From Nitrosopumilus sp. (GTDB taxonomy: Archaea > Thermoproteota > Nitrososphaeria > Nitrososphaerales > Nitrosopumilaceae): 64,000 nucleotides of DNA. Below, one piece after another: positions 10,170-26,758 of this stretch (the first letter of the stretch is position 1; every line of letters starts with the position of its first letter). The notes under the pieces were generated by a model. The model saw only the letters and a program-made list of their open reading frames with translations. It was not told where the DNA came from and did no database searches. A program made the translations under genes and the position numbers. The DNA is taken from assembly GCA_965219345.1 (NCBI GenBank), contig OZ244732.1:256001-320000 (forward strand), written 5' to 3'.

Positions 10170-11023
10170 TACTTTGACTTTACCACCTTGTGTCTTTTCT
10201 GACCTGGCTTTAGTGAGGGCCTAAGACCGCAAGATTTGCCAAGTTTTCTCATTCCTGCATATACTCCACCTTTACCCATCCTTACAGGTTTTATTGTTCT
10301 AACAGATACAATCAGAGGATCCGTACCTTTTGGTTATGACATGAATCTGTCTTTCCATTCTTCTTTGTACAATAACAGGTAAGAGCCAGCTTCTGATGTA
10401 AAATTGGTCCAGTATTCTTCATCATCTCCTCTGTATATACAAGGTGCGCCCCCTTGAGTACCATCTTTATTGTAGAAAAATACCACGTCACCCCGGATAA
10501 AACAATCCCAAGCCTCCACTCTAAAACCTACAGAAGAGCACAAGGTTATGATTATTTTATCAGCTGTATCTGTTGCCTTTTTCATGATAGCTGCAGCCGT
10601 GGTCCGGTGCAGGCCCTGTCTTGTGATTTGCCGTCCTTTGGAATGGAGCGATCTAGCTTCTTCCGGGAAAAGTCAATATCATTTGCAGCAAACAATGCCT
10701 TGATTGGCTTTATGAGATTTCTTACCCTTGCAGGTGAAATTATCTTGTTTTCAATTTTCTTTTTTAGCTCCCTGACATATGCATTGATAATTGCCTTTCC
10801 GACAGATACATTTTGGCCTGCTAACTTGCAAGATCATCTGGCCTGATTTTGGGGGGTCTTTGCCAGTTACTAGGATCTGATTATCCACGCATATCTGCCA
10901 AGGTATCAGTTCTAGAAACTTTACAGGATCTCCTTGGTAGTTTCTTGGGGTTTTTTCATTTCCGATATGGTCAATAAAATTTTGATATGCTGGTGCTCTG
11001 TCTCTCTTCTAGCTGCAATCCAT
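10170..11023 (-). pseudogene. Decayed tyrosine recombinase/integrase
   Basis: Fragments AYQNFIDHI.., IKPIKALFAANDID.., LCSSVGFRVEAW, IYRGDDEEYWTNFTSEA and GLRPSL..RHKV resemble the intact integrase at 21292. Multiple stops and frameshifts; truncated before HxxR. Confidence 0.8.
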
Positions 11024-11060
11024 ACTGTACGTTAGAAAAAACATCTATTTTGGCGATTGA

Positions 11061-11588
11061 CTAGTATGAAAGCTTCCTAGCCTTCATTCTCTTAATTTTC
11101 TCTTGCAGCAAGATACATCCTTGTATGAGAGTTTCGGGTCTGGGTGGGCATCCTGGAACATAGACATCAACTGGAATTACTCCGTCAATTCCTGGAAGTA
11201 CATTGTATGAGTCAAAATACAGTCCTCCAGTAATTGCACAAGCTCCCATAGCAATTACATACTTTGGTTCTGGCATTTGATCATAAACTAATCTGAGACG
11301 TGGTGCCATTTTTCTTGTAATAGTTCCTTGAACAACAACTAGATCACATTGTCTAAGTGATCCAAATGCTTCAATGATGCCAAATCTTTCAACATCATAT
11401 CTGGGACTTGATGCTGCACCAAATTCTACACTGCAGCAAGCTGTTTCAATGTGGACAGGCCAGAGTGACCAAATTCTACCCCAGTTGATGGCGTAGCCCA
11501 ACGGTTTACCGATTGCTCTTTCTAAGATGTCTCCTAACTTTCCTACAAAGACATTTGCGTTTTCTGGCGTTACCAAGTCTTTAAGCAA
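11061..11588 (-). CDS. nuoB: NADH-quinone oxidoreductase subunit B
   Basis: TACCSVE, GACAITGG and VPGCPPRPE motifs. Confidence 0.97.
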   Translation of the reverse strand: MLKDLVTPENANVFVGKLGDILERAIGKPLGYAINWGRIWSLWPVHIETACCSVEFGAASSPRYDVERFGIIEAFGSLRQCDLVVVQGTITRKMAPRLRLVYDQMPEPKYVIAMGACAITGGLYFDSYNVLPGIDGVIPVDVYVPGCPPRPETLIQGCILLQEKIKRMKARKLSY

Positions 11589-11628
11589 TCTTATCCCTTA
11601 TCCTAGTAATTATAATTGATATAAAAAA

Positions 11629-12003
11629 CTACCATATTCTTCGTCTCCCTGACTGATACAATGCGAATGCCATTGCTCCAAACATTATAGCTAAGAATCC
11701 CATCATAGGCAAAGTAGCACTCTTTGGAAGTTCCAAAAGAGAACTTCCCCATGCATACAAGAAAATTGCCATGACATCAAAGACTACAAACATCAGAATG
11801 TAGGGATAATACTGCATCATAAAGTGAGTTCGTCCTTCTCCTGATGGAACCTGGCCACATTCCATTGGCAAAAACTTGACAGGATTACTTCTTTTTCTTG
11901 GTGAAATCATTCTTGAAATTACTAATGCAGGTGCCATCGCTGCTATGCCAAAGGCAAACATCAGTACTACGGTACTATAATTGCCCGCTAATTCCCCGAC
12001 CAA
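11629..12003 (-). CDS. nuoA: NADH-quinone oxidoreductase subunit A (start uncertain)
   Basis: MECG..., QYYPYILMFVVFDV, three TM helices; directly upstream of nuoB. Confidence 0.93.
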   Translation of the reverse strand: MVGELAGNYSTVVLMFAFGIAAMAPALVISRMISPRKRSNPVKFLPMECGQVPSGEGRTHFMMQYYPYILMFVVFDVMAIFLYAWGSSLLELPKSATLPMMGFLAIMFGAMAFALYQSGRRRIW

Positions 12004-12084
12004 TTTAGCTATTGACCCTAATTTTTGTATATAATTCAATCGTTTCAGGCACATTTATAGCACATTATAGTAGATATTAGAGAA

Positions 12085-13017
12085 ATGTCTACCTTTCTAC
12101 GAAAAACCAGAGATCGCAGGAGTTTTGAGGAGACAATACAGACAAAGGCAGTAAATACACAAAATTCCTCAAAGTCAGCAATAAGGAATTTTGAGATGTT
12201 TTGTAAGGAGAAGTATGGTAAGACAGGTAATGAGATCATTGCAGAATATCAAGAAGTGGATATTGAGACAGTCTATGAATCTCTGCAAGAATAGATCAAC
12301 TGGAATAGTAAAAGAATTTATCCAAATAGCATCCCTACAGTATTTTCATATCTGAAAAAATACCTAAGATATCACAAGATAAAGATCACAAAGGAAGATG
12401 TGGCAGACCAGCTGAATTTCCCACACAAGATCAAGGAGGAAAAATATCCTTTGGTAAAAGATGAGATTAGGAAAATATTGGAGGTAAGCAATAATAGAAA
12501 CAAGCTCAAAATTCTGGCACAGTCATCAAGTGGATTGAGAAGGGGGAATTATTACAATTATGAAAAATAGATCTAGATACTACACAAAAGAGGATCATAG
12601 TCAATGTTCCTGCCAGCATTACCAAGACAAAGAAATCAAGGGTGGCTTTTTTTAGCAAAGAGGTTACGCCTTTATTGAAACCAATTCTAAAGAGACTAGA
12701 TGGTGAGGACAGAATATTTTTCCGTGGCAAGGCAAATCCTGCAAACATTAGCAGTCACTATCAGTTGGTTCTGATCAAATATCTAGAACGCATAGGTTTG
12801 GCTCAAAAGTATGAATCAGGTCATCACAAGATAACAACGCATAGTTTCAGGGCATTCTTTATAACCAAAGTATCTAGACATGATCCAAACTTGGCAAAGT
12901 ATTTTGCAGGACAAGAATAGTCAAGGGATTTGCTGACGTATGATAGACTTACATTAGATGAGAAGTTACAAAAATATATCGAATTTGATCCGGATTTATT
13001 GATTGGCATTCTATAAT
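12085..13017 (+). pseudogene. Decayed tyrosine recombinase/integrase
   Basis: Fragments with SSGLRRG, VNVPASITKTK, THSFRAFF, FAGQ and TYDR, interrupted by stops (12294, 12920) and frameshifts. Confidence 0.85.
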
Positions 13018-13141
13018 AAACAAATAATTGAATATTTAAAAAAATATAAGATATACTTTTATCAAAACTAATGTCAGGGCAGATTATAGTTCCAGTAAAT
13101 AATAAAAAAGATAATTAAGAAAGAATGTACAATTATCACAC

Positions 13142-13816
13142 ATGACTAAAAAACGATATCCCATACTGTTTAACATTCCTTTACGAACCAAGAAAATTTT
13201 AGAAGAAGCAGAAGAATTAGAAAAAAATAAATTTTTTTCTTCTGCAATTCTAAGATATACTAATTATTTAGAACAATTTCTTGTTATTGCTAGCCTAAGT
13301 TATTGTGAAAAACATGATCATGGACCAGTATCGGAGGTACGAAAATGTGTCATGAATACAAAAATTAACAAGAAGTTCACTTTTCATAATATCATTGGTT
13401 TAATGCCTGATAAAATTAAGACTGATGGGATTAAACAATTGTGCAAAGAAATTAAAAATATTAGAAACCAAATTGGTGCTCATGATTATTTTGTAATTGC
13501 GTTAGATAAAACACGTTATAAACAAAGAAGATTTGATGACGTGAATAGTTATAGAAAATTTATTCGTAATTTGTACAAATTAATTAAAAAGACAAAAACA
13601 ATCAATCAAGCAGAAAATTTTTTATTGTTAGGACATCCATTGACTATTTATTCCACACTTGAAGAAAAAGCATATGACGTTGAAATGATAATAATGGAGT
13701 CTATATGCATGCATACAAGAAAAACAGTACAAAATGTCTGTCAAAAAATTGAACACGAGTTATACAGGACCAGTCCCGATCCAAATTTAAACAAATATTT
13801 TTCACGAGATTGTTAA
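13142..13816 (+). CDS. Hypothetical protein, putative HEPN domain
   Basis: Helical protein with SAIL..YLE and an RNQIGAH (Rx5H) motif. Confidence 0.5.
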   Translation: MTKKRYPILFNIPLRTKKILEEAEELEKNKFFSSAILRYTNYLEQFLVIASLSYCEKHDHGPVSEVRKCVMNTKINKKFTFHNIIGLMPDKIKTDGIKQLCKEIKNIRNQIGAHDYFVIALDKTRYKQRRFDDVNSYRKFIRNLYKLIKKTKTINQAENFLLLGHPLTIYSTLEEKAYDVEMIIMESICMHTRKTVQNVCQKIEHELYRTSPDPNLNKYFSRDC

Positions 13817-13921
13817 TAGGCGATTCATTGGTTGTGATAGGTGAAAACTCATCTAATTTCCTTGGAATTCCAAGATTATGTAGATTCAGATTAAATATAT
13901 GATTCACTTACGAATTAATTT

Positions 13922-16666
13922 ATGAGACCTGAAGACAGTGCACGCCAAGAAATTGACAAAATGTTGATTGATTCAGGCTGGATTATCCAAGATTATGAGG
14001 ATAGAAATCTTAGTGCTGGATTGGGCATAGCAGTAAGAGAATACCCTCTAAATAAGGACAATGCAGATTATGCACTATTCATTGATTCGCAACCTGTAGG
14101 AGTAATTGAGGCAAAAAAGTATGGCCATACACTTAGTGGAGTAGTTGAACAATCTGAAAAATATCTTGATGGACTATATGAAAAATTTACAAATGCCCCC
14201 ATAAGACCTCCATTCTCATATGAGACAACAGGAATTGAAACTAAATTTGCAGACAGACGTGATCCAAATCATCGCTCACGCTATGTGTTCTCATTTCATC
14301 GTCCAGAATTATTACAGGCATGGCTTAAAGAAGAAGAAACATTACGTGCGAGATTAAAGGATATTCCAAAACTAGACTATGAAAAACTTTGGAATTGTCA
14401 AACAGAGGCAATCACAAATCTAGAAGATTCTTTTGCGCAGAATAATCCACGTGCGTTAATCCAGATGGCAACGGGTTCAGGTAAAACATTTACCGCAGTA
14501 ACTTCAATTTATAGACTGATAAAATTTGCAAAAGCAAAAAAAGTTTTGTTTCTAGTTGACAGATCTAATTTGGGCAGACAGGCATTACGTGAATTTCAAC
14601 AGTATCAAACCCCTGATGATGGACGGAAATTTACTGATTTGTATAATGTACAACTGTTACAATCACATACAATTGATCCCATATCTAAAGTTGTAATATC
14701 TACAATTCAAAGAATGTTTTCAGTTCTAAAAGATGACAAAGACTATGTGGAAGAAAATGACGAGTTTTCTGTATATGAGGAAAATTCTGATGAAACTCCT
14801 GTAGATGTAAAATATAATGAAAATATTCCAATTGGTGAATTTGATTTTATTGTAATTGACGAGTGCCATCGTTCCATCTACAACAAATGGAAACAGGTAT
14901 TGGATTACTTTGATTCATTTCTAATTGGATTAACTGCAACTCCTTCAAATGATACCATAGGATTTTTCAAGAATAATCAAGTGATGAGATATACTCATGA
15001 GCGAGCGATAGTTGATGAGGTAAACGTGGGATATCATGTATACAGGATTAAAACCAAAATTAGTGAGCAGGGTGGCGGTGTCGATGCAGGTCAATTTGTT
15101 GAAAAGCGTGATAGACTTACACGTGAACAAACAGCAGAAAAATTAAATGAAGACCTAATTTTTACCAGAGAAGAATTAGATAGATCTATAGTAACAAGGG
15201 ATCAGATCAGACTAGTTGTTAGAACATTTAAAGAGAAATTACCTGAGATCTTTCCAAACAGAACAGAGGTTCCTAAGACCCTGATTTTTACAAAAAATGA
15301 TTCTCATGCCGAAGATGTTACAGAAATTGTTCGAGAAGAGTTTGGATTGGGAAACAATTTTTGCAAAAAAATCACATATCGTAGTACAGAAAAACCCGAA
15401 GAATTGATCTCTAGTTTTAGAAATTCCCCAATGCCACGAGTTGCAGTGACAGTAGATATGATTGCAACTGGAACTGACATCAAACCGCTAGAATGCATTA
15501 TATTTATGCGAGATGTAAAGTCTAAAAACTACTTTGATCAGATGAAAGGCCGTGGCACTAGAACCATTAAACCTGATGATCTAATTGCAGTTACACCTGA
15601 TGCAAAAGCTAAAACTCATTTTGTAATAGTTGATGCAGTAGGTGTATGCGAACATTCCATGAGTGATACTCATTCATTATTTAGAAAACTAAATGGGTCA
15701 TTTAAGATACTTTTAGACAAGGCAGTTGACAAAAATGCAGATACTGAAGACATTGAAAGCTTGGTGTATCGCTTATCTAGATTAAATAGAAAATTAAGCC
15801 AAGAAGATAAAGATGAAATTACTAATGCAAATAATGGGAAATCACTTACAAATATAGAAAAAACATTACTTGATGGAATTGATTCTGATAAAATACTAGA
15901 AAAGGCAAAAGGACAATTTCATACTTTAGAGCCAACTACTGAGCAAATTAAAAAAATATCAAAACAGATGATTGATGAGGCATGCAAAGTATTCGATTCT
16001 GCAAAACTGCGTAAAACAATTCTTGATATCAAAAGCAAAAATGAGCAAATCATCGATGATGTATCAATTGATGAATTACTCGAAGCAGGATTTTTAGATA
16101 AAGTACAAAATATTGACAAAAAGACTATTGAAAACTGGACTCTATTCATTGAGAAGAACAGAGATCAGATTACAGCACTTGATATTATTTACTCAAAACC
16201 ATACAGGATGAGGGAGATTACATTTTCAGATATCAAGAATTTGGCACATGCCATTGAAAAACCTCCATACAATCTAACTTCTAGGATTCTTTGGAATGCT
16301 TACCAAAGACTAGATAAATCCAGAGTAAAGAGCAATCCAGTTAAGATGCTGACTGATTTGATTTCACTTGTACGTTATTCATCTGGAAAAGAGGAGTCAT
16401 TGTTGCCATTTTCAGAAATTATACATGAAAAATTTGAGAAATGGCTTACTCAACAAGAGTCTTCTGGACGCCAGTTCACATCAGAACAAAAGGAGTGGCT
16501 TGTAATGATCAAAAATGCCGTTGCAAGTTCTGTTTCAATTGAGATAGATGCACTCGATGATGTTCCATTTAATCAAAAAGGTGGCAGAGTAAAGTTTTAT
16601 GAGATATTTGGAGATGAATATGAGAAGATTTTAGATGAATTACATGAGGTGTTGATTAATCAATGA
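13922..16666 (+). CDS. hsdR: Type I restriction enzyme subunit R (EcoEI-like)
   Basis: ADY..VIEAKK nuclease; MATGSGKT, IDECHRS, LTATP and QMKGRGTR helicase motifs. Confidence 0.96.
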   Translation: MRPEDSARQEIDKMLIDSGWIIQDYEDRNLSAGLGIAVREYPLNKDNADYALFIDSQPVGVIEAKKYGHTLSGVVEQSEKYLDGLYEKFTNAPIRPPFSYETTGIETKFADRRDPNHRSRYVFSFHRPELLQAWLKEEETLRARLKDIPKLDYEKLWNCQTEAITNLEDSFAQNNPRALIQMATGSGKTFTAVTSIYRLIKFAKAKKVLFLVDRSNLGRQALREFQQYQTPDDGRKFTDLYNVQLLQSHTIDPISKVVISTIQRMFSVLKDDKDYVEENDEFSVYEENSDETPVDVKYNENIPIGEFDFIVIDECHRSIYNKWKQVLDYFDSFLIGLTATPSNDTIGFFKNNQVMRYTHERAIVDEVNVGYHVYRIKTKISEQGGGVDAGQFVEKRDRLTREQTAEKLNEDLIFTREELDRSIVTRDQIRLVVRTFKEKLPEIFPNRTEVPKTLIFTKNDSHAEDVTEIVREEFGLGNNFCKKITYRSTEKPEELISSFRNSPMPRVAVTVDMIATGTDIKPLECIIFMRDVKSKNYFDQMKGRGTRTIKPDDLIAVTPDAKAKTHFVIVDAVGVCEHSMSDTHSLFRKLNGSFKILLDKAVDKNADTEDIESLVYRLSRLNRKLSQEDKDEITNANNGKSLTNIEKTLLDGIDSDKILEKAKGQFHTLEPTTEQIKKISKQMIDEACKVFDSAKLRKTILDIKSKNEQIIDDVSIDELLEAGFLDKVQNIDKKTIENWTLFIEKNRDQITALDIIYSKPYRMREITFSDIKNLAHAIEKPPYNLTSRILWNAYQRLDKSRVKSNPVKMLTDLISLVRYSSGKEESLLPFSEIIHEKFEKWLTQQESSGRQFTSEQKEWLVMIKNAVASSVSIEIDALDDVPFNQKGGRVKFYEIFGDEYEKILDELHEVLINQ

Positions 16667-17889
16667 GTGAGTTAGTTTTTGAAAAAAATATTCAATTATC
16701 AAAAGGATGGACTGTTTGTAAATTAGAAGATATTGCAATGGAAATTAACTCTGGTTTTGCTTCTGGCAAACACAATAAATCTGGAAATGGGATTGCACAC
16801 ATACGACCCATGAATATTGACAGTTCTGGTAAAATTAATTTAACTGTTGTAAAGTATATTGAAGATAATTTTAAAGATAAATTGAAAAAAGATGATGTGT
16901 TATTCAATAATACCAATAGTCCAAAACTACTTGGAAAAACTGCATTGATAAAAGAGAATACTAATTGGGGTTATTCTAATCACATGACTAGAATACGATT
17001 TAATTCTTCAAAAGTTGAATCTTCTTGGTTTGCACTTTTTTTACACAAATTATTTTTAGATGGATATTATAAACAAATTGCAAAGAATCATGTAAATCAA
17101 TCTAGTATAAATTCTAGTGATCTAGCAACAAAAATTCCAATAATCATTGCTCCTAAGAATGAACAAAAACGCATCGTATCCAAAATTGAATCAATCTTCG
17201 CACAGATTGACGCAGGAAAAGAAAAACTGGTGGATGTAAGAAAATTGTTGAAGCAGACTAGACAGTCTATATTAAAGAAAAATTTTGATGCATCAAGTAA
17301 ACAATATGAGTCCCAAAAATTAGATAATTTATCTATTAAAATCACTGATGGTACACATTTTACACCAAAATACGAAGAAAGTGGAATTCCATTCATATCT
17401 GTAAAAAACATACAAAATGAAAGAATCTATTTTGATAATTGTAAATATGTGTCACAAGAAACTCATGAAAAATTAATCAAACGATGTCATCCTGAATTTG
17501 GAGATCTGCTTATTACTAAAAGTGGTACAATTGGACGAATTGCAATTGTTGACACAAAAGTTCCTTTTAGTTTGTTTGTGAGTGTTGCACTAATAAAATT
17601 GAGGAATAATATTAATAAAAACTATCTAAAGCTTTTCTTCCAAGATTTCTTTAATCATATAGACATCTCTCAACAAATCAAGGGTGTTGTAATCAAAAAT
17701 TTCCATCTTGAAGATATTCGACAAGTTCTAATCCCCCTTCCTCCACTAAATGAACAAAAACGCATCGTATCCAAAATTGAATCAATCCTTGGCAGGATTG
17801 ACGCAATTGAAAATCTCATAATTTTAACATTTTGTATGATTTTAATGATGAAAATTATGTTGCCATCAAGTATTATACTTGAAAATTAA
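16663..17889 (+). CDS. hsdS: Type I R-M specificity subunit, copy 1 (two TRDs; lacks the normal C-terminal conserved tail)
   Basis: KGW, two TRDs, and P..NEQKRIVSKIESI twice. Homology ends at RIDAIE, followed by an unrelated tail. ATGA overlap with hsdR. Confidence 0.92.
   Translation: MSELVFEKNIQLSKGWTVCKLEDIAMEINSGFASGKHNKSGNGIAHIRPMNIDSSGKINLTVVKYIEDNFKDKLKKDDVLFNNTNSPKLLGKTALIKENTNWGYSNHMTRIRFNSSKVESSWFALFLHKLFLDGYYKQIAKNHVNQSSINSSDLATKIPIIIAPKNEQKRIVSKIESIFAQIDAGKEKLVDVRKLLKQTRQSILKKNFDASSKQYESQKLDNLSIKITDGTHFTPKYEESGIPFISVKNIQNERIYFDNCKYVSQETHEKLIKRCHPEFGDLLITKSGTIGRIAIVDTKVPFSLFVSVALIKLRNNINKNYLKLFFQDFFNHIDISQQIKGVVIKNFHLEDIRQVLIPLPPLNEQKRIVSKIESILGRIDAIENLIILTFCMILMMKIMLPSSIILEN
17161..17214 (+). 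repeat. hsdS repeat A, left copy (inverted partner 20576-20629)
   Basis: 53/54 identity to the reverse complement of 20576-20629; the first 50 bp are identical. Confidence 0.95.
17752..17813 (+). repeat. hsdS repeat B, left copy (inverted partner 19887-19948)
   Basis: 55/62 identity to the reverse complement of 19887-19948; the last 25 bp are identical. Confidence 0.92.
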
Positions 17890-17918
17890 TAAAAAAAGGA
17901 AAACTGATTTTTGATCAA

Positions 17919-18023
17919 TTATCTATTACTACGGCCACCGCCAGAAGGCTTGCCAGTACCACTAGGCCATCCGCCGCCATTCCCTTGGCCTCGACCGGCT
18001 TGAACTTGTGTATGATTACTCAT
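17919..18023 (-). CDS. 34-aa Gly-rich peptide
   Basis: MSNHTQVQAGRGQGNGGGWPSGTGKPSGGGRSNR*. GC-rich ORF in AT-rich DNA, with a TTAAATAA TATA-like box ending about 21 nt upstream of the ATG. Confidence 0.6.
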   Translation of the reverse strand: MSNHTQVQAGRGQGNGGGWPSGTGKPSGGGRSNR

Positions 18024-18219
18024 AACCAATAAAATATTTATTATTATTTAAGTTTTACATATGATTTATCAATTCTATCTTTGTTTAAAACAAACATTCG
18101 AAATTAAGTATTTTCTAATTCACTACCCAATATCAAAGAATCCATTTTATAAGACATATGTACAAAAATACAAATTCTAAAAAAATTTGATATTTCTAAT
18201 AAATCAATAATTTTTTTCT

Positions 18220-19704
18220 TTATTTTTTTCCAAGATTTAGAACTAGCTCATCTATAGAATCAAGTGCAAATTCCAGATTGTTTTTAATCTCATCAGCAAT
18301 TTCTTCAGGAGATGGTAAATTTTCAATATCCTCTAAAGAATCATCTTTTAGCCAGAAAATATCTAACGATACTTTGTCTCTTTTTATCAAATCATCATAA
18401 GAATAGGCATGAAATCTGTCTGTTTCCTTTCTTTTTAGAATATTTTTTGCATTGTAACACTTTACAAAATCATTCAAATGTTCTCGATCTAGTTGATTTT
18501 CTTTTAATGTAAAATGTTGATTTGTTCTAAAGTCATAAATCCATAGTTTCTCAGTCCAGGCTTTTCCATCTGTTCTTGCAGGCTTTTTATCAAAGAATAA
18601 CACATTTGCCTTTACACCACCTGCATAAAATATTCCTGTAGGTAATCGAAGTAAAGTATGACAGTTCATTTGTTCTAACATTCCTCTTCTTACAGTTTCT
18701 CCGGCACCTCCTTCAAACAATACATTGTCTGGAACTACGATTGCACACCGTCCATTATTTTTAAGAATTGTTTTCACATGCTGTAAAAAATTTAACTGCT
18801 TGTTTGATGTACTAGCCCAAAAATCATCTCTTTCATACGATAATGTTTCACGTTCAGCTTTTCCTGTTTCAGAAAAAATTACTGTACTTGATTTTTTTCC
18901 AAATGGAGGATTAGTCATTATTACATCAAATCGATCGTTTGGAACAGAAATTAATGAATCTCCTGCAACAATCTGGCTTTCAGTTGAGCCAATACCATGC
19001 AGATACATGCTCATTGCACATAATCTAACCACTTCTGTTACAATATCCCAACCCTTGAATGTTTTATTCTTGAGAAATTTCTTTTCATCGGGATCTAATT
19101 GAAATTTCTTTATCAAGTATTTGTGTGATGATAAGAAAAATCCACCAGTACCACATGCAGGATCTCCTATCGTCTCTTTTGGTTTTGGTTGTATGACATC
19201 AACTATTGCATCAATTAATGCACGCGGTGTAAAGTACTGACCTGCACCACTCTTAACATCCTCTGCATTTTTTTCTAATAATCCTTCATAGATCTCACCT
19301 TTGACATCAATATCCATTCCACTCCAGAGAATCTTGTCTTTGTCTTTTGAATCCCCATCAATTAGTTTGATCAGTCGCTCTAATTTTGCTGGATCTTGGA
19401 TTTTATTTTGGGATTTTCTGAAAATTACTCCTAATAATCCTCTTTCTTGAGCTAAATTCTCCAAAGCATGTCTATAGTGAGTCTCCAAGTCTCCACCTGT
19501 TTTTCCAGTTAATGTAGTCCAATCATATTTTACAGGAATAATTGATTTTTTCTTAAATGGTGGCTTTGTTTGTTCATCTGCCATCTTTAAGAATAGCAGA
19601 TTAGTTAATTGTTGGACATAATCCCCATAGGACACTCCATCATCTCTTAGCACATTACAGAAATTCCAGAGTTTTTGTACTATTATTGGTGCTTCATTTG
19701 ACAA
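18220..19704 (-). CDS. hsdM: Type I R-M N6-adenine methyltransferase
   Basis: GQYFTPR, DPACGTGGF and NPPF motifs. Confidence 0.96.
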   Translation of the reverse strand: MSNEAPIIVQKLWNFCNVLRDDGVSYGDYVQQLTNLLFLKMADEQTKPPFKKKSIIPVKYDWTTLTGKTGGDLETHYRHALENLAQERGLLGVIFRKSQNKIQDPAKLERLIKLIDGDSKDKDKILWSGMDIDVKGEIYEGLLEKNAEDVKSGAGQYFTPRALIDAIVDVIQPKPKETIGDPACGTGGFFLSSHKYLIKKFQLDPDEKKFLKNKTFKGWDIVTEVVRLCAMSMYLHGIGSTESQIVAGDSLISVPNDRFDVIMTNPPFGKKSSTVIFSETGKAERETLSYERDDFWASTSNKQLNFLQHVKTILKNNGRCAIVVPDNVLFEGGAGETVRRGMLEQMNCHTLLRLPTGIFYAGGVKANVLFFDKKPARTDGKAWTEKLWIYDFRTNQHFTLKENQLDREHLNDFVKCYNAKNILKRKETDRFHAYSYDDLIKRDKVSLDIFWLKDDSLEDIENLPSPEEIADEIKNNLEFALDSIDELVLNLGKK

Positions 19705-21145
19705 TTTTTTTCCTCTTTGATGGTTTTTGGTTTTGTATTAACTGTTCTTTTTGTTGTTTTATCTTTTGTAATAAAATTTCCGCTGGTTCATCACTTGGAT
19801 CTTGTGGAACTAGCTTGCCTTCAAATGCTTTTTTGAGAGTGCTCTTTTTTAATTGATCAAGCTTGGTCAATGAATCATCGACTTGCTTTTCAATTGCGTC
19901 AATCCTGCCAAAGATTGATTCAATCTTTGAGACGATGCGGTGCTGTTCTAGGAGTGGTGGCAAAGATACTTTGATGGATTTGAGCTGTTTTCCCGTTATG
20001 GCTTTGAATGTAGTGCCAGTCCCTTTTTGGGAGATGTGGTTTTCCAAATATCTCAAATGGTAAAAAACATACGACATGTCTGCGACTTCCAGTGTTTTGA
20101 TTGCAGATAATCCACGCCCGATACAGCATGTCTCTGGGCTGATGTTTGTCGAACCCACCGGAGCTCTAACTGAAATCAAGATATCGTTTTTCTCGGCTGT
20201 CTTTTTTGGTGAATCACACCAAACTCTGGTTGTGGGATAAAATTCTCCAAAATCTGCTTTGCCTTGGAAAAATGGAAGTCCACTTCCTTCCTTGTTGTAT
20301 GTAGACGATGGTGGAGATTGTCCTAGTATGACAGTGGAGATGTTTTCTAGATCTGTCCTAATCCATCCTTTTGGCAGATCATCTTTTTCAAAAAATAATT
20401 CTTTGACAGAATCTTTATGAATTCTCTTCAAAAGAATTTCAGCTGGCTCATCATTAGGATCTTGCGGGAGAATCCTACCCTCAAAAGCCTGTTTGAGCAC
20501 GCTACTCTTCAACTGCACCAAGCTGCCAGAAGCTGATGTAACCTGTGATGCCAATCTCTCCAGGTTTTCCCGTATTGCATCAATCTGTGCGAAGATTGAT
20601 TCAATTTTGGATACGATGCGTTTTTGTTCGTTGAGTGGTGGGATTGGTATTGGAATTGATTCTACATCTGTTTTACGTATAGAAGGCACTGTTGTAGATC
20701 TAGATAAATTTCCAAGTTTTATAGTGATGAAAAAATAATACAAATATAAAATTTCAATAACGCTTTCATTAGAAATTAATCCCATTACATTATTATCAAA
20801 AAGGGAATCTGTTGAAGAAATTGCACGTCGGTTTAATTTTAAGGCTTCACCAATTTTTGCAAATACAATTGTTCCTTTAGGAAATAACTTTCCTTTCAAG
20901 AGATCACAGATTTCTTGAGATACATAATTGTCCGATTCATTTAACCATAAACAATTATTCCGAACGGTTTTTGAAATATCTCCTACTTTGTAGAAAGAAT
21001 ATTTTTCCTTTTTTCCCCCTTGGTAAATTTTTGGAAATCCTATTCCAGAATTTACAGTACATACCGCATCTAATTTAGTTTCTATCCATCCTTTAGGAAG
21101 ATCATCTGAATTATTACCAGTGGAAGCAATATTCTTTTCTGACAA
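19694..21145 (-). CDS. hsdS: Type I R-M specificity subunit, copy 2 (complete)
   Basis: LPKGW twice, two TRDs, EQxRIVSKIESI twice, AFEG..PQDP.DEPAEILL tail. Overlaps the hsdM start. Confidence 0.95.
   Translation of the reverse strand: MSEKNIASTGNNSDDLPKGWIETKLDAVCTVNSGIGFPKIYQGGKKEKYSFYKVGDISKTVRNNCLWLNESDNYVSQEICDLLKGKLFPKGTIVFAKIGEALKLNRRAISSTDSLFDNNVMGLISNESVIEILYLYYFFITIKLGNLSRSTTVPSIRKTDVESIPIPIPPLNEQKRIVSKIESIFAQIDAIRENLERLASQVTSASGSLVQLKSSVLKQAFEGRILPQDPNDEPAEILLKRIHKDSVKELFFEKDDLPKGWIRTDLENISTVILGQSPPSSTYNKEGSGLPFFQGKADFGEFYPTTRVWCDSPKKTAEKNDILISVRAPVGSTNISPETCCIGRGLSAIKTLEVADMSYVFYHLRYLENHISQKGTGTTFKAITGKQLKSIKVSLPPLLEQHRIVSKIESIFGRIDAIEKQVDDSLTKLDQLKKSTLKKAFEGKLVPQDPSDEPAEILLQKIKQQKEQLIQNQKPSKRKKIVK
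19887..19948 (-). repeat. hsdS repeat B, right copy
   Basis: Inverted partner of 17752-17813. Confidence 0.92.
20576..20629 (-). repeat. hsdS repeat A, right copy
   Basis: Inverted partner of 17161-17214. Confidence 0.95.
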
Positions 21146-21291
21146 TTCATTGAATTAATTTTATCTTTATTTTAAGATTATTACAATAATTTCTTTCATA
21201 ATTTTTAATCATATTCCAATTGAAAATAAAAAATAGGTTAAATTATATTTTCAAACATTTGTACAAAAATAGATATTATAAGACCATAAGT

Positions 21292-22215
21292 ATGTTCACA
21301 TACAACACAAAACCAAGAAGTACGATACTCTTTGATGAATCTATAAAATCAGAATATACAAAAAAGAATTACAATAGTCATCTTAATTCATTCAAAAAGT
21401 TTGCCAAAATAAGCATCATAGACGAATTACTATTCATGCCGCAAGACAAACTACAAAACATACTAGAAGATTATCTAATAGAACTAAAACATACCACAAA
21501 TCCAAACACTATACCATCAAAGTTTCAAGGAATAAAGCATTTTTGTGTTATGAATGAAATCAATCTAAACTGGAATATAATACACAAACTGTTTCCACAA
21601 AAGCAGAAAACCCAAAGCTTGAGATCCTATACTGCAAAAGAGGTCAAGGAATTATTGTCAAACACAAAAAGCATTAGAAACAAGGCATTGATTCATTTTT
21701 TGGCCTCAACTGGTGCAAGAATTGGAGTATTTGACCATGAGTTACTAATCAAACATACTAGAAAAATGCCATTTGGTTGTATTGCAATCAAACTCTATGC
21801 AGATCATATTGAGGAATACTGGGCCTTTCTTACCACGCAGGCATCAAAAATATTGAATGCATACCATGAACAGCGTAAATTATATGGAGAGATATTTTAT
21901 GAAAATACTCCAGTTTTTACAATAAGAGATACATCAAAACAGCTTGGATGGAGTGGTGCAAGATCGGTAATATATAGAACAATATCAAAAAGCAACATAG
22001 ACAGATGCAAACAGGATAACCGTTACGATGTACAAGCAGACCATGGATTCAGAAAGAGATTCAACACCATACTCAAGATTAACAATTCTGTAAACTATAA
22101 CATTGCAGAAAAACTGATGGGACATAAAAACGGATTGGATGGCGTCTATTTTACGCCAACAGTAGAAGAATTGTTTGCAGAATTCAAAAAAATAATGCAT
22201 AAAATTGAGATCTAG
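21292..22215 (+). CDS. Tyrosine recombinase/integrase (apparently intact)
   Basis: Catalytic set STGAR, HGFR, LMGH and VYF; ATG at 21292. Confidence 0.92.
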   Translation: MFTYNTKPRSTILFDESIKSEYTKKNYNSHLNSFKKFAKISIIDELLFMPQDKLQNILEDYLIELKHTTNPNTIPSKFQGIKHFCVMNEINLNWNIIHKLFPQKQKTQSLRSYTAKEVKELLSNTKSIRNKALIHFLASTGARIGVFDHELLIKHTRKMPFGCIAIKLYADHIEEYWAFLTTQASKILNAYHEQRKLYGEIFYENTPVFTIRDTSKQLGWSGARSVIYRTISKSNIDRCKQDNRYDVQADHGFRKRFNTILKINNSVNYNIAEKLMGHKNGLDGVYFTPTVEELFAEFKKIMHKIEI

Positions 22216-22329
22216 TCAAAATTAAATTCGTATTGTCCATTATACACGCAAAAATTTTGTGAATCATATGTGTGGGTATTTTTATAGGATTTTGACTATC
22301 AACCAAAAGATTACATTTAGATTGTTTTA

Positions 22330-23016
22330 TTATTCATCTGTCTTCTCTTTCTCAATTTTCTCTACATGGTAATCTAATTTCTTTATCATGTTAACGGTAA
22401 GATCCAAACTACTAATTAGTGGCCTGTCTTTTTCTGGATGAAGATTCTTTTTTATTTCCTTGATTCCAGACTCTGCTAGCATGCCTGCTAAATCTCGATA
22501 GTATTTTTTATGAGAATCACGATACTGATCCTCATTAATTTCATTCGTATTTCGGTATGTGGCATATTTTCCAGTAGATTGTGAAGATATTCCCTGTGGA
22601 TGAAATACAAATATTGCATCCAAGAGTTTTTGCATATTGTCCAAGCTAAAAACATCTTGGGCAAGATTTCTTTGTATATTCTTAAAGTGCTGTAGAACAT
22701 ATTCCTCCCCTACCAGATCAAAGCTTAGTGTGGATTTTATGATGCTGGCAGGCAGATTCGAATAATTCTGTCTAATGTATTCCCTATCTGAATTTTCAGA
22801 TGTCCTATCTGACGTTATGTTGGATATTCTAATTATCTCAGATAGCATCATAAAGGCATTTACGGAATTTGTTATCTTGGAGATAATGTCGTTTTTTGCC
22901 TTTGAGAGTCTTTTGGTCTCTGTCTTTGTTTGATTCCCAGTAGCAAACTGTTGGTTATGGTGACCTTTGAGAAAATCTAGTATCTTCTTTTCAAACGCGG
23001 TCAGCTCTTGTTCCAT
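22330..23016 (-). CDS. Hypothetical protein
   Basis: 228-aa ORF with no recognised motif. Confidence 0.6.
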   Translation of the reverse strand: MEQELTAFEKKILDFLKGHHNQQFATGNQTKTETKRLSKAKNDIISKITNSVNAFMMLSEIIRISNITSDRTSENSDREYIRQNYSNLPASIIKSTLSFDLVGEEYVLQHFKNIQRNLAQDVFSLDNMQKLLDAIFVFHPQGISSQSTGKYATYRNTNEINEDQYRDSHKKYYRDLAGMLAESGIKEIKKNLHPEKDRPLISSLDLTVNMIKKLDYHVEKIEKEKTDE

Positions 23017-23397
23017 TACTTCATAAATAGTGGATGTATATTAAAAGTCTACCAATATTTGAGAAAGTAATTTACTTGTGAAGCCTAGATTTTTTAATAA
23101 TATATTTAATAATTTCAATAACACAATACTACAGATAATAATCATAACATTAAGAGAAAGTGGAACCACTGGGTGAAAAACAATGGAAACAACTAACTGA
23201 CGCACTCAACAAAAGTCCAACTCCAGAAAAGACAATTTGTAAAAGAATCAGTAGAGTGTTTTAAACATCTAAAAGAACAAAAAGAATAGATCCCACATTG
23301 TCATCTGATGGCTTTTTGTTTATGGCAAAAAAATTATTGTATTTGCTACACTTGCAATGACGCATGTGAAAATAAAATGAATATCCTGAAAGAATAT

Positions 23398-23988
23398 TTA
23401 CAAAAGGATTCGATTTAAAAATTTTCCATCAAGTTTTATTGTTTCATCAACTGCGTCAAGTAAAGAGTTGTTTATAGCAAATCTTGAAAAATATGCCAAT
23501 ACAGTTTTAATTCCTACCTCTTTAGCTTTTTCAATAGCATACACAAAATCACTATCACTTGCAATTAGAATAACTTTATCTGTTTTCTTTTGCATGCTTA
23601 ATTGTACTATGTCAACTCCAATTTGTATATCTACACCTTTTTGATTAAATTGAAATTTTTGACAATCAGGATCCCATACTTTTTGTAATCTACCTAACTT
23701 GACTTCATATTGGCATGATTTTCCAACATTATATGAAATCGTTGTACATTTCTATACATCTCTGTTTCATGTTGTAGGAGGATTACTTACAGTTGGCATA
23801 CAGTTATGGCAAAAGGCATCAACTATAGTAGTAGAGTTACTTAGCTCAGAAATTAATTTGGCATAATCGATTTTGATATGTTTTGTTTTGCAACATTTTC
23901 CAACATATCCCGCATCAATGAAAATAGTAGAATTAACTGAACCGGCGTTGTCCAAGTTACCCTGACCAACACTGGCGGTCATATACAT
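23398..23988 (-). pseudogene. NYN (LabA/DUF88, PIN-like) domain gene, disrupted
   Basis: IFIDAGY in the 5' fragment; QKGVDIQIGVD and ASDSDFVYAI in the 3' fragment; stop/frameshift near 23700-23770. Confidence 0.8.
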
Positions 23989-24276
23989 ATAGTGGTATTA
24001 AAAAAATCTATTTAGTCTTTTCGGATACAAAATTCAATTATGCTTTATAAAAGGACAGATACCAAATTGCATGCAAAAAAGAGCACAGATAAAATGCAAG
24101 TTAACAGAGATGAGCAATAAATGGTAAATGAATCCCTGAAACATCTAGACAAGTTTGGATTTTTTGTGACTAGGAAAAATTTTTGTGTGTAAAAAGGTAT
24201 GGTTACTTTTTTCGATCAAATTTTGGAAAAAACAATTTTTGTAAACAACTTAATAGGATAATGACAGAAAGCGAGC

Positions 24277-24741
24277 ATGTCATTGAATATTGGAGATGTT
24301 GCTCCTGACTTTGAACTTCCAGATACAGAATTGAAGATGCGGACTTTGGATGAATTTAAAGGGGAAAAAATCGTACTATCATTCATAGTTGCTGCAAGTT
24401 CTCCAGTTTGTGAAGCTGAGCTATGTACACTTAGAGATTCCTGGCAAGAGATTTCAGATCTTGGCGCGCAAATAGTATCAATCAGTAATGATGGACCATT
24501 TGCAAACAAGGCATTTGCAGAAAAACACAACTTCAATTTTCCATTATTAGGAGATTATAACAGTAAAACAATTCGTGATTACGACATACTGATGAAAGAT
24601 TTGCTTCACATTAAAGACTACAATGCTGCAAAACGTTCTGTTTTCATAATAATGGAAGATGGAAAGATTGGTTACAGATGGGTTTCAGAAGATCCATTAA
24701 AAGAACCAAACTATGAAGAAATTAAAAATTTTCTAAAATAG
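24277..24741 (+). CDS. Peroxiredoxin (AhpC/TSA family)
   Basis: GDVAPDFELP, SPVCEAE and KRSVFII motifs. Confidence 0.92.
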   Translation: MSLNIGDVAPDFELPDTELKMRTLDEFKGEKIVLSFIVAASSPVCEAELCTLRDSWQEISDLGAQIVSISNDGPFANKAFAEKHNFNFPLLGDYNSKTIRDYDILMKDLLHIKDYNAAKRSVFIIMEDGKIGYRWVSEDPLKEPNYEEIKNFLK

Positions 24742-24751
24742 AAAAAAATTT

Positions 24752-25264
24752 TTATTCTATTTCTGCAATAACGTAGCCTTTGGCAACGGTTTCAGTTTCC
24801 TTAACTTTAATTGATTTTATAACACCATCTTTGTGTGCTTTAATGGCTACCTGCATTTTCATGGACTCCAAAGTACAAACAACATCGCCTTTCTTTACAG
24901 AGTCTCCATCGGCAACTGCGATCGATACAACCTTTCCTGGAATTTGGCTTTTCAAAGCTAATTGTGCATTGCCAGTGCCACCTCCACCAGTGTTTTTGTA
25001 AACAATTTCATCAAAGTGGGCATGAACGTTTAGAGTAATTGGAACATTGTCAATTACAAGATTCATTTCACTTGTAGATTGTTCAAGATATTTTGCTCTG
25101 TGGTATTTTTGGTCCAAAATGAATTCAATTCCCTTTGAAGTCATATTAAGAATTTTTAGTTGGTGTTCGTTATCATTGATTTTAATTACATATTCATTGT
25201 TACCAAGGTTTTCTGTTATCTTTCCTTCAAATGACTTTTCAATATCTGGTATTTTATAATCCAT
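24752..25264 (-). CDS. accB: Biotin carboxyl carrier subunit of acetyl/propionyl-CoA carboxylase
   Basis: ESMKM biotinylation motif. Confidence 0.93.
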   Translation of the reverse strand: MDYKIPDIEKSFEGKITENLGNNEYVIKINDNEHQLKILNMTSKGIEFILDQKYHRAKYLEQSTSEMNLVIDNVPITLNVHAHFDEIVYKNTGGGGTGNAQLALKSQIPGKVVSIAVADGDSVKKGDVVCTLESMKMQVAIKAHKDGVIKSIKVKETETVAKGYVIAEIE

Positions 25265-25270
25265 GATTCA

Positions 25271-26758
25271 TCAATCCAATTTATTTTTCCAGTTGGAATT
25301 GTTGGCAGATTGGTTTTGTATGCGGCTCTTAAAGTATTCAGAATGAATTATTGCCGCAGCTAAAGCTGCTTCGCTTTTCTCCTCTCTTTCCTTCTTGAGA
25401 TCTTCAGTCAATCTATCAATCATGCCATGACGCTTGAGAAAATCAGTGGAAAGATCCCCGTTTTTGTATTCATCGGAGTTTAGAATTGTTTTGTATAGAG
25501 GAATTGATGTTTCTACTCCTTGAATGTAAAAGTCATTTAATGCTGCAAGCATTCTAGTTCTAGATTCTTCAAATGTTTGACCCCATGTGACAAGTTTTGC
25601 CATAAGTGAGTCATAAAATGGGGAAACTGTACAGCCAGGATACAGGTAGGTATCACATCGAACACTCGGCCCAGCTGGGATTATTACATCTGGAACAGGC
25701 CCGGTAGAGGGGGCAAAGTCCAAGAAAGTATCTTCTGCATTGATTCTACACTCTATTGCATAACCATTCATTTTGAGATCACCTTGTTTGAATGGAATTG
25801 GCTCTCCATTTGCAATATCTAATTGCAATTTAACCAAATCCAGTCCTGATACAAATTCTGTAATTGGGTGTTCTACCTGTAACCTAGCATTGATTTCAAT
25901 AAAGTAGAATTCGCCATTATCGGCTCTAAGAAATTCAGCGGTTCCCAAGTTAGTATAGCCAACCGCATCTGCTGCTTTACAGACCAACTCGCCTATACGT
26001 GCCCTTGTTTCTTCATCAACCACAGGTGAAGGAGTTTGTTCAATTAATTTTTGGTTACGCCTTTGAATTGAGCATTCTCTTTCAAAGATGTGAACTGTAT
26101 TACCATGAGTATCTCCAGCCATCTGGTATTCAATGTGTCGAGTTTTTTCAAGGAATTTTTCTACAAGAATGGCAGATTTCCCCACTGCCGCAATTGATTC
26201 TCCTGTAACAGATTCATAGCCTTCACGTAATTCTTTATCACTAGTTACAATCCTAATTCCACGACCACCCCCGCCATAAACTGATTTTAACATAACAGGA
26301 TATCCAATTTTATTTGCAATTTTTTCTGCGTCATCAGCATCTTTTACCAGGCCAGGACTGCCAGGAACAGTTGGAACTTTGGCTTTTAACATTGCAGCCT
26401 TACATTTCATTTTGTCACCACAAAGATCCATTGAATCTGCAGATGGGCCAATGAAGTTAATTTTATTTTTTTCACACAGTCTTGCAAAGTCATCGTTTTC
26501 AGAAAGAAAACCATAACCTGGATGAACAGCATCAGTACCAGATGATAGCATTACTTCAAGAATTTTTTCTTGGTTGAGGTATGATTTCGCAGGAGCTGCT
26601 TCCCCGATGCAATATGCTTCGGTAGCCTGTTTTACGTGTAAAGAATTGTAATCTTCATCAGAGTAAACTGCAACGGTTTTGATTCCAAGTCTCCTACATG
26701 TTCTAATTACACGTAAAGCAATTTCTCCTCTGTTTGCGATTAGTACTTTTTCAATCAT
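25271..26758 (-). CDS. accC: Biotin carboxylase subunit
   Basis: ANRGEIA, HPGYGFLSEN, GGGGRG and RLQVEH motifs. Confidence 0.96.
   Translation of the reverse strand: MIEKVLIANRGEIALRVIRTCRRLGIKTVAVYSDEDYNSLHVKQATEAYCIGEAAPAKSYLNQEKILEVMLSSGTDAVHPGYGFLSENDDFARLCEKNKINFIGPSADSMDLCGDKMKCKAAMLKAKVPTVPGSPGLVKDADDAEKIANKIGYPVMLKSVYGGGGRGIRIVTSDKELREGYESVTGESIAAVGKSAILVEKFLEKTRHIEYQMAGDTHGNTVHIFERECSIQRRNQKLIEQTPSPVVDEETRARIGELVCKAADAVGYTNLGTAEFLRADNGEFYFIEINARLQVEHPITEFVSGLDLVKLQLDIANGEPIPFKQGDLKMNGYAIECRINAEDTFLDFAPSTGPVPDVIIPAGPSVRCDTYLYPGCTVSPFYDSLMAKLVTWGQTFEESRTRMLAALNDFYIQGVETSIPLYKTILNSDEYKNGDLSTDFLKRHGMIDRLTEDLKKEREEKSEAALAAAIIHSEYFKSRIQNQSANNSNWKNKLD

Follow-up and report, generated by a model that had tools for sequence, protein, structure and literature searches.

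A Type I restriction-modification (R-M) locus in a Nitrosopumilus sp. genome (assembly GCA_965219345.1) is probably a genuine hsdS inversion system driven by a neighboring tyrosine recombinase, here called Rec, and a member of a family that extends across the genus. The locus lies in a stretch of 64,000 nucleotides (contig OZ244732.1, positions 256,001 to 320,000 of the forward strand; G+C 34.6%), which we call the window and whose numbering is used throughout; the genome comprises 1.91 Mb in two contigs (1.87 Mb and 41.6 kb). Two specificity genes, hsdS1 and hsdS2, face each other across the methyltransferase gene hsdM, and the conserved regions (CRs) of the two genes form inverted repeats, A and B. 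The anatomy of the locus, the retention of reading frame in all of its simulated states and one past inversion exactly at repeat B are established. Comparison with other genomes of the genus points to a probable archaeal hsdS inverton family.

HsdR, HsdM (an N6-adenine methylase) and HsdS with two target recognition domains (TRDs) are encoded together, as in Type I R-M systems, and the genes are arranged as hsdR-hsdS1(+) opposed to hsdS2-hsdM(-). At expression site 1, hsdS1 (16663-17889, +; two Methylase_S stretches) runs in the order TRD a, CR1 (repeat A1), TRD b, CR2 (repeat B1) and a 25-residue read-through tail; its homology to HsdS stops after ...RIDAIE, and 25 unrelated hydrophobic residues and a stop codon follow (17814-17889). 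At expression site 2, hsdS2 (19694-21145, -; TTG start; two Methylase_S stretches; PADLOC Specificity_I E 2e-67, residues 13-480) reads TRD c, CR1, TRD d, CR2 and tail, and is the complete S gene of the assembled state. The sole HsdS C-terminal tail (64 residues, 19694-19886, -) overlaps the start of hsdM (18220-19704, -; N6_Mtase E 4.5e-67, HsdM_N, PADLOC MTase_I E 7e-186) by 11 nt and moves with hsdM, which falls within both predicted invertible segments. Both hsdS frames are still open, with intact TRDs. The candidate invertase gene Rec (21292-22215, +; PF00589, XerA-like) is separated from hsdS2 by a divergent intergenic region of 146 bp (21146-21291) that may serve as a promoter region and contains a conserved Rec-upstream motif at ~21245-21281. 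On the other side, hsdR, the restriction subunit gene (13922-16666, +; ResIII E 7e-37, EcoEI_R_C E 4e-35, PADLOC REase_I), lies outside all predicted invertible segments, and its stop overlaps the start of hsdS1 as ATGA.

Repeat A1 is CR1 of hsdS1 (17161-17214, +; encoding EQKRIVSKIESIFAQIDA) and repeat A2, its reverse complement, is CR1 of hsdS2 (20576-20629, -); the copies are identical at 53 of 54 positions, with 50 nt exact and a single differing position. Repeat B1, CR2 of hsdS1 (17752-17813, +), and its reverse complement B2, CR2 of hsdS2 (19887-19948, -), match at 88.7% over 62 nt, of which the final 25 nt are identical. The four conserved regions are all alike, each encoding ...EQ(K/H)RIVSKIESI(F/L)..IDA, so that cross pairs also exist (B1/A2 with 35 nt exact; A1/B2 at 77-80%), and direct repeats occur inside each gene (A1/B1 80% over 83 nt; B2/A2 73%). 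Repeats of this length are far above chance, yet they are expected of two opposed paralogous hsdS genes; the informative point is that they are far better conserved than the flanking TRDs, which do not align. The geometry of hsdS1(+) and hsdS2(-) facing each other across hsdM, as proposed in the initial annotation of the sequence, holds base for base, and the same is true of its repeat coordinates and identities (A 53/54; the last 25 bp of B identical). The translated frames likewise agree with its observation that hsdS1 loses homology at the end of repeat B while the single tail is joined to hsdM, and the intact tyrosine recombinase that it placed about 150 bp from the hsdS2 start lies at a measured 146 bp (21145 vs 21292).

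The A and B segments were inverted computationally and the frames re-read in each state. The reference state has a-b-junk (408 aa) at site 1, behind hsdR, and c-d-tail (483 aa) at site 2, next to Rec. A flip at B yields a-b-tail (447 aa) at site 1 and c-d-junk (444 aa) at site 2, a flip at A yields a-d-tail (477 aa) and c-b-junk (414 aa), and A followed by B yields a-d-junk (438 aa) and c-b-tail (453 aa). Every simulated state is frame-preserving, and in each one, as in the reference, the last 11 nt of the complete S gene fall within hsdM. The predicted outcomes of S(a,b) from the B flip, S(a,d) from the A flip, S(c,b) from both and S(c,d) as assembled were thus reproduced in silico. The locus combines two hsdS genes in opposite orientation with inverted repeats inside their coding sequences and inversion products that stay in frame, which are among the features by which hsdS invertons are recognised. 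In a cross exchange between B1 and A2, one product would have three TRDs (674 aa) and the other a single TRD (217 aa).

We propose that the locus works as an hsdS shufflon ("epigenetic inverton"), in which Rec would exchange strands between inverted copies of a near-identical CR core. Exchange at CR2 (repeat B, 2.07-kb segment) would flip a cassette made up of the sole HsdS C-terminal tail and hsdM; the hsdS gene receiving this cassette would become complete and be co-translated with hsdM, and the other hsdS gene would read into junk. Exchange at CR1 (repeat A, 3.36-kb segment) would additionally swap the second TRD. The four states would then supply S(c,d), S(a,b), S(a,d) and S(c,b), with the methylase operon placed either behind hsdR or at the Rec-side site. 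We infer Rec to be the acting enzyme and flipping to be both frequent and reversible, with transcription at each of the two sites and a different specificity for each of the four proteins.

Relatives of the locus bear on its history. HsdM orthologues (E <= 1e-60) are present in 12 of the 150 other genomes of the genus, and nine of those loci were compared. The closest relative, G156 (HsdM 97%), lacks a recombinase and has hsdR, hsdS and hsdM in that order on a single strand. Window positions 13875-16692 match this genome at 91.9% in the same orientation, whereas 18211-19960 (hsdM, tail and repeat B) match at 95.2% in the opposite orientation, and the homology ends 12 nt beyond repeat B. The tail with hsdM is 95% identical to G156, in which the tail follows hsdS on the hsdR strand. 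Given the canonical order in G156 and the opposite-orientation match, the assembled state is the B-flipped form, and by this alignment an inversion exactly at repeat B has occurred. The canonical hsdR-hsdS-hsdM order also appears in G046 and in one contig from a metagenome, on which the first TRD shares 74-75% identity with TRD a. DNA searches of the 150 genomes returned nothing above 80% identity for hsdS1 and nothing above 76% for the hsdS2 TRDs, the sole higher row being a 66-nt CR1 match (94%), and a metagenome scan for the same TRDs in rearranged form returned four loci, of which L037 alone was informative.

The Rec protein scores 30.5 bits against PF00589 (cut-off 27.1). Across 19 sequences, R143, R254, H278 and Y286 are invariant and H251 is nearly so; a score above the gathering cut-off together with the catalytic Arg, His-x-x-Arg, His/Trp and Tyr places Rec among the tyrosine recombinases. 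A profile built from 19 members of the Rec clade matched the XerA structures 5hxy (E 2.7e-8) and 4a8e (E 6.9e-6), and in the profile alignment R143, H251-x-x-R254, H278 and Y286 fall on the XerA catalytic residues. The beta-hairpin Lys was not located in Rec, and a single-sequence search of the PDB gave 0 matches. Against NF040815, the family of the XerA chromosome-dimer resolvase, Rec reaches 53.5 bits vs a curated cut-off of 220 and is therefore not an XerA orthologue; no match in the genome attains that cut-off, the best (72.9 bits) lying elsewhere in the genome. The genome contains 12 matches to Rec, and across 16 other genera the top match is 34% identical. Judged from these comparisons, Rec is a member of a multi-copy clade detected within the genus only.

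Throughout the genus the Rec clade is associated with inverted hsdS pairs, and this association supports an inversion system. Six of the nine compared HsdM loci (G014, G154, G164, G161, G155 and G009) have both a Rec orthologue (63-69%) and an opposed hsdS pair; G159 has Rec, one full hsdS and one hsdS fragment, and G156 and G046 have neither Rec nor an inverted hsdS pair. Members of the clade also adjoin opposed hsdS pairs that belong to other Type I systems, with an HsdM only 24-31% identical to the one described here (G144, G145, G142, G162, G149, G148 and a second G155 locus). Layouts vary: in G164, G155 and G014 hsdS and hsdM are separated by an inserted block Rec(-)-hsdS'(-), and in G144, G145, G142, G154 and G161 hsdM, usually with hsdR (as in G154 and G161), lies between the two hsdS genes. 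Across the genus, 64 of 80 Rec matches were full-length without internal stops; one further match was the window itself, and 15 partial or interrupted ones were dropped. Proximity to hsdS was judged from the listed PF01420 matches, and because 36 PF01420 matches are unlisted the counts are lower bounds. On this basis, at least 16 of 24 Rec orthologues at >=56% identity have an hsdS domain within 2 kb, as against 0 of 40 paralogues at 36-50% identity among the matches listed; two of the dropped matches also lie less than 500 bp from an hsdS domain. In the window Rec is 146 bp from hsdS2, inside the 2 kb from an R-M gene within which an invertase homologue is sought according to the available portion of PMC7672463.

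The repeats themselves behave as if they were recombining, being more alike within loci than between them. Inverted CR1/CR1 and CR2/CR2 repeats were found in 13 of 13 loci with two mapped facing hsdS genes, with 19-287 nt exact; among them are repeats of 189 nt at 99.5% in G164 and of 213 nt at 96% in locus b of G155. Over a 54-nt core, the within-locus CR1 pairs share 53, 51, 51, 44, 53, 54, 53 and 54 bases, compared with a between-locus mean of 47.1/54, the count of 53 being reached by only 3 of the 128 pairs taken between loci. Three within-locus CR2 pairs share 54, 48 and 54 bases (between-locus mean 46.7). Both the linkage of the Rec clade to inverted hsdS pairs and the homogenisation of repeats within loci are thereby established. 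The opposed hsdS genes of G155 (L023, 3496-4112 and 8338-8954) share a 622-nt inverted repeat at 91.5%, with 287 nt exact; this repeat spans a whole TRD, and some flips there would therefore leave specificity unchanged. Around the orphan Rec copies of G017 and G154, no inverted repeat >=30 nt was detected within 5 kb.

Within these repeats, GAATCAATC is a candidate crossover core. It occurs at both CR positions in 23 genes, which comprise every hsdS member of an inverted pair in the first and second R-M families plus the full-length hsdS of G159. It sits within the palindrome ATTGAATCAAT, with neighboring codons varying synonymously. A third R-M family carries ATTGC(A/G)TCAATCC at the same place. 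G156 lacks GAATCAATC, and its CR2 is in the ATTGCATCAATC form; the idea that GAATCAATC is a recombinase site that decays once Rec is absent was rejected, since ATTGCATCAATC is also the form of the third, Rec-linked family and since GAATCAATC specifies a conserved peptide as well.

The clade linkage and the varied layouts also allow a wider reading, which we offer tentatively and with less than even confidence in its parts taken together. Rec and a tail-less hsdS gene may form a portable diversity-generating cassette that has been plugged into at least two to three unrelated Type I operons, after hsdM, between hsdS and hsdM or beyond hsdR. Such a cassette would bring along, within the conserved regions of hsdS, a recombination core of its own, and in this genome the methylase gene and the shared HsdS C-terminus would be passed between two expression sites.

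The orientation of the locus was also followed in public sequence data. Five public runs from two studies contain the locus as Logan contigs, and four of them (X1, X3, X4 and X5) were compared at a likeness threshold of 90; the Logan index samples 31-letter words. The contigs that span B1 and continue into junk tail and spacer (X3 17758-19227; X4 17762-18361) and those running from hsdM through the tail into B2 (X1 19199-19911; X3 and X5 19199-19938) are all in the reference orientation, and in X3 the depth of the B-crossing contigs is 44-47 vs 49-51 in the flanks. Contigs break at repeat A because its 50 identical nt exceed the 31-letter word from which, we assume, they were built. As contigs drop rare variants and cannot cross repeat A, they are weak evidence on switching either way.

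Two opposite-strand joints at repeat edges, 17158/20576 (X1, depth 2.7) and 17752/20576 (X3, depth 21.2 vs ~45-50 for the strain), were considered as support for switching and rejected. The identical runs of 50 and 35 nt are longer than the assumed 31-letter word, so that a recombinant of the same strain would add no new words and a separate contig must differ in sequence; the joints most likely come from co-occurring strains. Loose contig ends at 19963, 20478 and 20576 do not fit the junctions predicted for inversion at A or B. The contig for TRD d (19934-20537) in X3 has a depth of 130 vs 47-49 in its flanks (~2.7x), and the central part of hsdS2 with TRD d (19800-20600) has a G+C of 41-42% vs 28-36% in its surroundings. 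The excess depth and unusual G+C indicate that the same TRD is also present in a co-occurring strain of greater abundance, a hint that TRDs were recently exchanged between strains.

Several observations weigh against a Rec-driven inversion system. No B-recombinant contig was among those listed for the four runs, in which the B-crossing contigs are all in the reference orientation. Besides G017, seven further Rec orthologues of the 24 have no hsdS nearby among the matches listed, four of them on contigs without a listed hsdS domain in fragmented assemblies. The core set was gathered by BLAST with the window's own repeat A, which favors repeat-A-like sequences in the core comparison. The conserved core also encodes a conserved HsdS peptide and is thus partly conserved at the protein level, so the crossover-core argument is not decisive. 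Finally, Rec stands at the edge of a variable stretch of ~12 kb (~12200-24170) between conserved flanks. In G017 the same site (L013 9253-16091), bounded by the acetyl-CoA carboxylase/peroxiredoxin flank on one side and the left flank on the other, contains an intact Rec orthologue (71%) and no hsd genes, its cargo being a DNA-methylase fragment and a 1053-aa DUF285/fn3 surface protein. Thaumarchaeota integrated elements, moreover, often carry HsdM/S/R beside XerC/D-type integrases, according to the accessible portion of PMC6563490.

These last points lead to the strongest alternative, a fossil rearrangement. Here, Rec would be the integrase of a cryptic element or variable island with the R-M genes as cargo, and hsdM with the tail would have been inverted once by homologous recombination between hsdS CRs, leaving hsdS1 as a truncated pseudogene and no switching today. 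A recombinase bordering a variable segment between conserved flanks is what an island integrase would look like, and together with the Type I cargo of integrated elements it means that Rec could itself be an island integrase or the descendant of one. At this site, with both flanks matched, G144 contains a different Type I R-M family; in G145 the matches are limited to Rec, a homologue of a neighboring 228-aa protein (orf228) and the right flank, the left flank being unmatched. A weak XerA-like fragment (26 bits, one internal TGA) lies at the left edge of the stretch (12546-12881, +), and the 12 Rec matches in the genome and the uniform orientation of the contigs also fit this explanation. However, in G164, G155 and G014 Rec lies between the opposed hsdS genes and splits hsdS from hsdM, which is not the position of a terminal integrase, and linkage to hsdS is specific to the Rec clade, the integrase-like paralogues having none among the matches listed. 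No flanking att repeat was detected: between 10500-13950 and 22200-25300 there is no exact direct repeat >=15 nt, and the longest, 14 nt, is within the shuffle range. A single old event would not explain the near-identity of repeats within eight separate loci, and both hsdS frames are open with intact TRDs. As a joint account, we regard the fossil rearrangement as unlikely, although it deserves to be taken seriously.

At this border, orf228 (22330-23016, -) adjoins Rec both here and in G144 (82%), and its homologue in G145 (64%) lies at the opposite end of the R-M block. It gave no significant family match, only one weak Pfam match (E 0.0034) below the cut-off.

A second alternative, in which the repeats would act in deletion with re-insertion, or in gene conversion out of silent cassettes, instead of inversion, is very improbable. 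Direct-repeat hsdS systems such as S. pneumoniae SpnIV provide a precedent, direct repeats exist inside each gene as described above, and a separate pair of single-TRD hsdS-like frames exists outside the window (G000:C1:1120374-1121701). The best-conserved repeat pairs are nevertheless the inverted ones, and the assembled and canonical states differ by inversion, not by deletion. The frames of that separate pair are divergent (213 and 225 codons, one Methylase_S domain each) and end in ...LLPKLMSG(E/Q)IR(I/V); with the window HsdM as query, no hsdM was found nearby. An assembly artefact with a misoriented segment between the repeats can be largely discounted, since, although 50-nt exact inverted repeats can mislead short-read assemblers and the breaks at repeat A leave the a-to-b linkage without independent confirmation, independent contigs from the runs of two studies cross B1 and B2, all in the reference orientation, and the genome assembly consists of two contigs only.

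The B segment also contains a spacer of 330 bp (17890-18219) 3' of hsdM. A small glycine-rich, locally G+C-rich frame in it (17919-18029, -; 36 codons from TTG, 34 from an internal ATG) has no convincing homologue, with low-complexity matches only in the genome and the loci. The Rec-upstream motif, AAACAT.TGT.CAAAAATA..., is found ~30-50 nt 5' of Rec genes in ten loci. In addition to the copy at 21245-21281 (+), a second copy lies in the spacer (18144-18180, +), on the invertible segment and directed into the 3' end of hsdM; this copy may have been left behind by a lost Rec gene, act as an antisense promoter or serve as an accessory site.

Inversion switches in hsdS are a well-studied bacterial means of varying restriction specificity and methylome, mainly in host-associated bacteria. 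If active, the Nitrosopumilus loci would carry the mechanism into the Archaea and into a free-living nitrifier that is abundant in the ocean, would add a new recombinase clade with a candidate target site and would offer a concrete locus for asking whether virus pressure drives phase-variable defence in marine archaea. Should the portable-cassette reading be true, marine ammonia oxidisers would run phase-variable restriction specificities and methylomes as a population-level antiviral defence. If inactive, the locus would be a tidy record of hsdS conserved-region recombination reshaping R-M operons.

The view of the initial annotation that no such system is known to be described in archaea stands insofar as our literature searches, which covered main texts (supplementary tables may list predicted loci), found no described archaeal or thaumarchaeal case of hsdS inversion. 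It needs to be qualified by passing mentions of archaeal loci of this kind in the available parts of PMC4948785 and PMC10028968, the latter of which terms archaeal invertons minimally investigated. The survey in PMC9881135 covered bacteria only, PMC5903667 reports no inversions in six archaeal data sets, and a 2024 review of archaeal R-M systems (PMC11033074) contains no word beginning with 'phase varia', 'inversion', 'recombinase' or 'shuffl'.

Among known systems, the locus is like S. pneumoniae SpnD39III/Spn556II (ivr/cod; CreX/PsrA), with opposed hsdS genes, frame-keeping inverted repeats in the coding sequence and a recombinase in or beside the locus, as far as the accessible text of PMC4948785 and PMC7672463 describes them. 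The same sources, to the same extent, list related invertons in E. faecalis, S. agalactiae, T. denticola and B. fragilis, and a full second hsdS gene gives a four-way switch in the part of PMC7394358 available. In the S. pneumoniae type, hsdM is fixed upstream of one expressed hsdS gene and the partners are silent, whereas in Nitrosopumilus the piece that flips is hsdM together with the sole C-terminal tail, and each of the two hsdS genes has a start. Its host is an archaeon that lives free in the sea and not a host-associated bacterium. Rec is nearest to archaeal XerA and is set beside PsrA and CreX by description only. Its best solved relatives are the XerA proteins of Pyrococcus abyssi (4a8e) and Thermoplasma acidophilum (5hxy), with which the R..HxxR..H..Y residues align; unlike XerA, Rec falls below the NF040815 cut-off and belongs to a multi-copy, genus-level clade.

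In the Mycoplasma pulmonis hsd loci studied by Dybvig and co-workers, hsdM and hsdR reportedly lie between inverted hsdS genes, and the layouts of G154, G144, G145 and G142 resemble this arrangement. As in M. pulmonis hsd1/hsd2, where hsdS inversions generate chimeric specificities and some products are non-functional (PMC4948785, in the passages available), inversion here would produce chimeric HsdS proteins. The M. pulmonis recombinase HvsR is encoded elsewhere and also flips vsa genes (PMC7672463, likewise in the passages available), whereas Rec adjoins its hsdS locus. The locus is also like the cryptic integrated elements of Thaumarchaeota in having an XerC/D-type recombinase beside HsdM/S/R in a variable region; the main text of the paper on these elements (PMC6563490) contains no word beginning with 'invers', and its accessible portion does not describe opposed hsdS pairs with homogenised repeats. 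The logic of the Nitrosopumilus locus is that of a bacterial hsdS inverton, from which it differs in its archaeal free-living host, in the XerA-nearest clade of its recombinase and in the cassette of hsdM and C-terminus that would move between two start-bearing hsdS genes.

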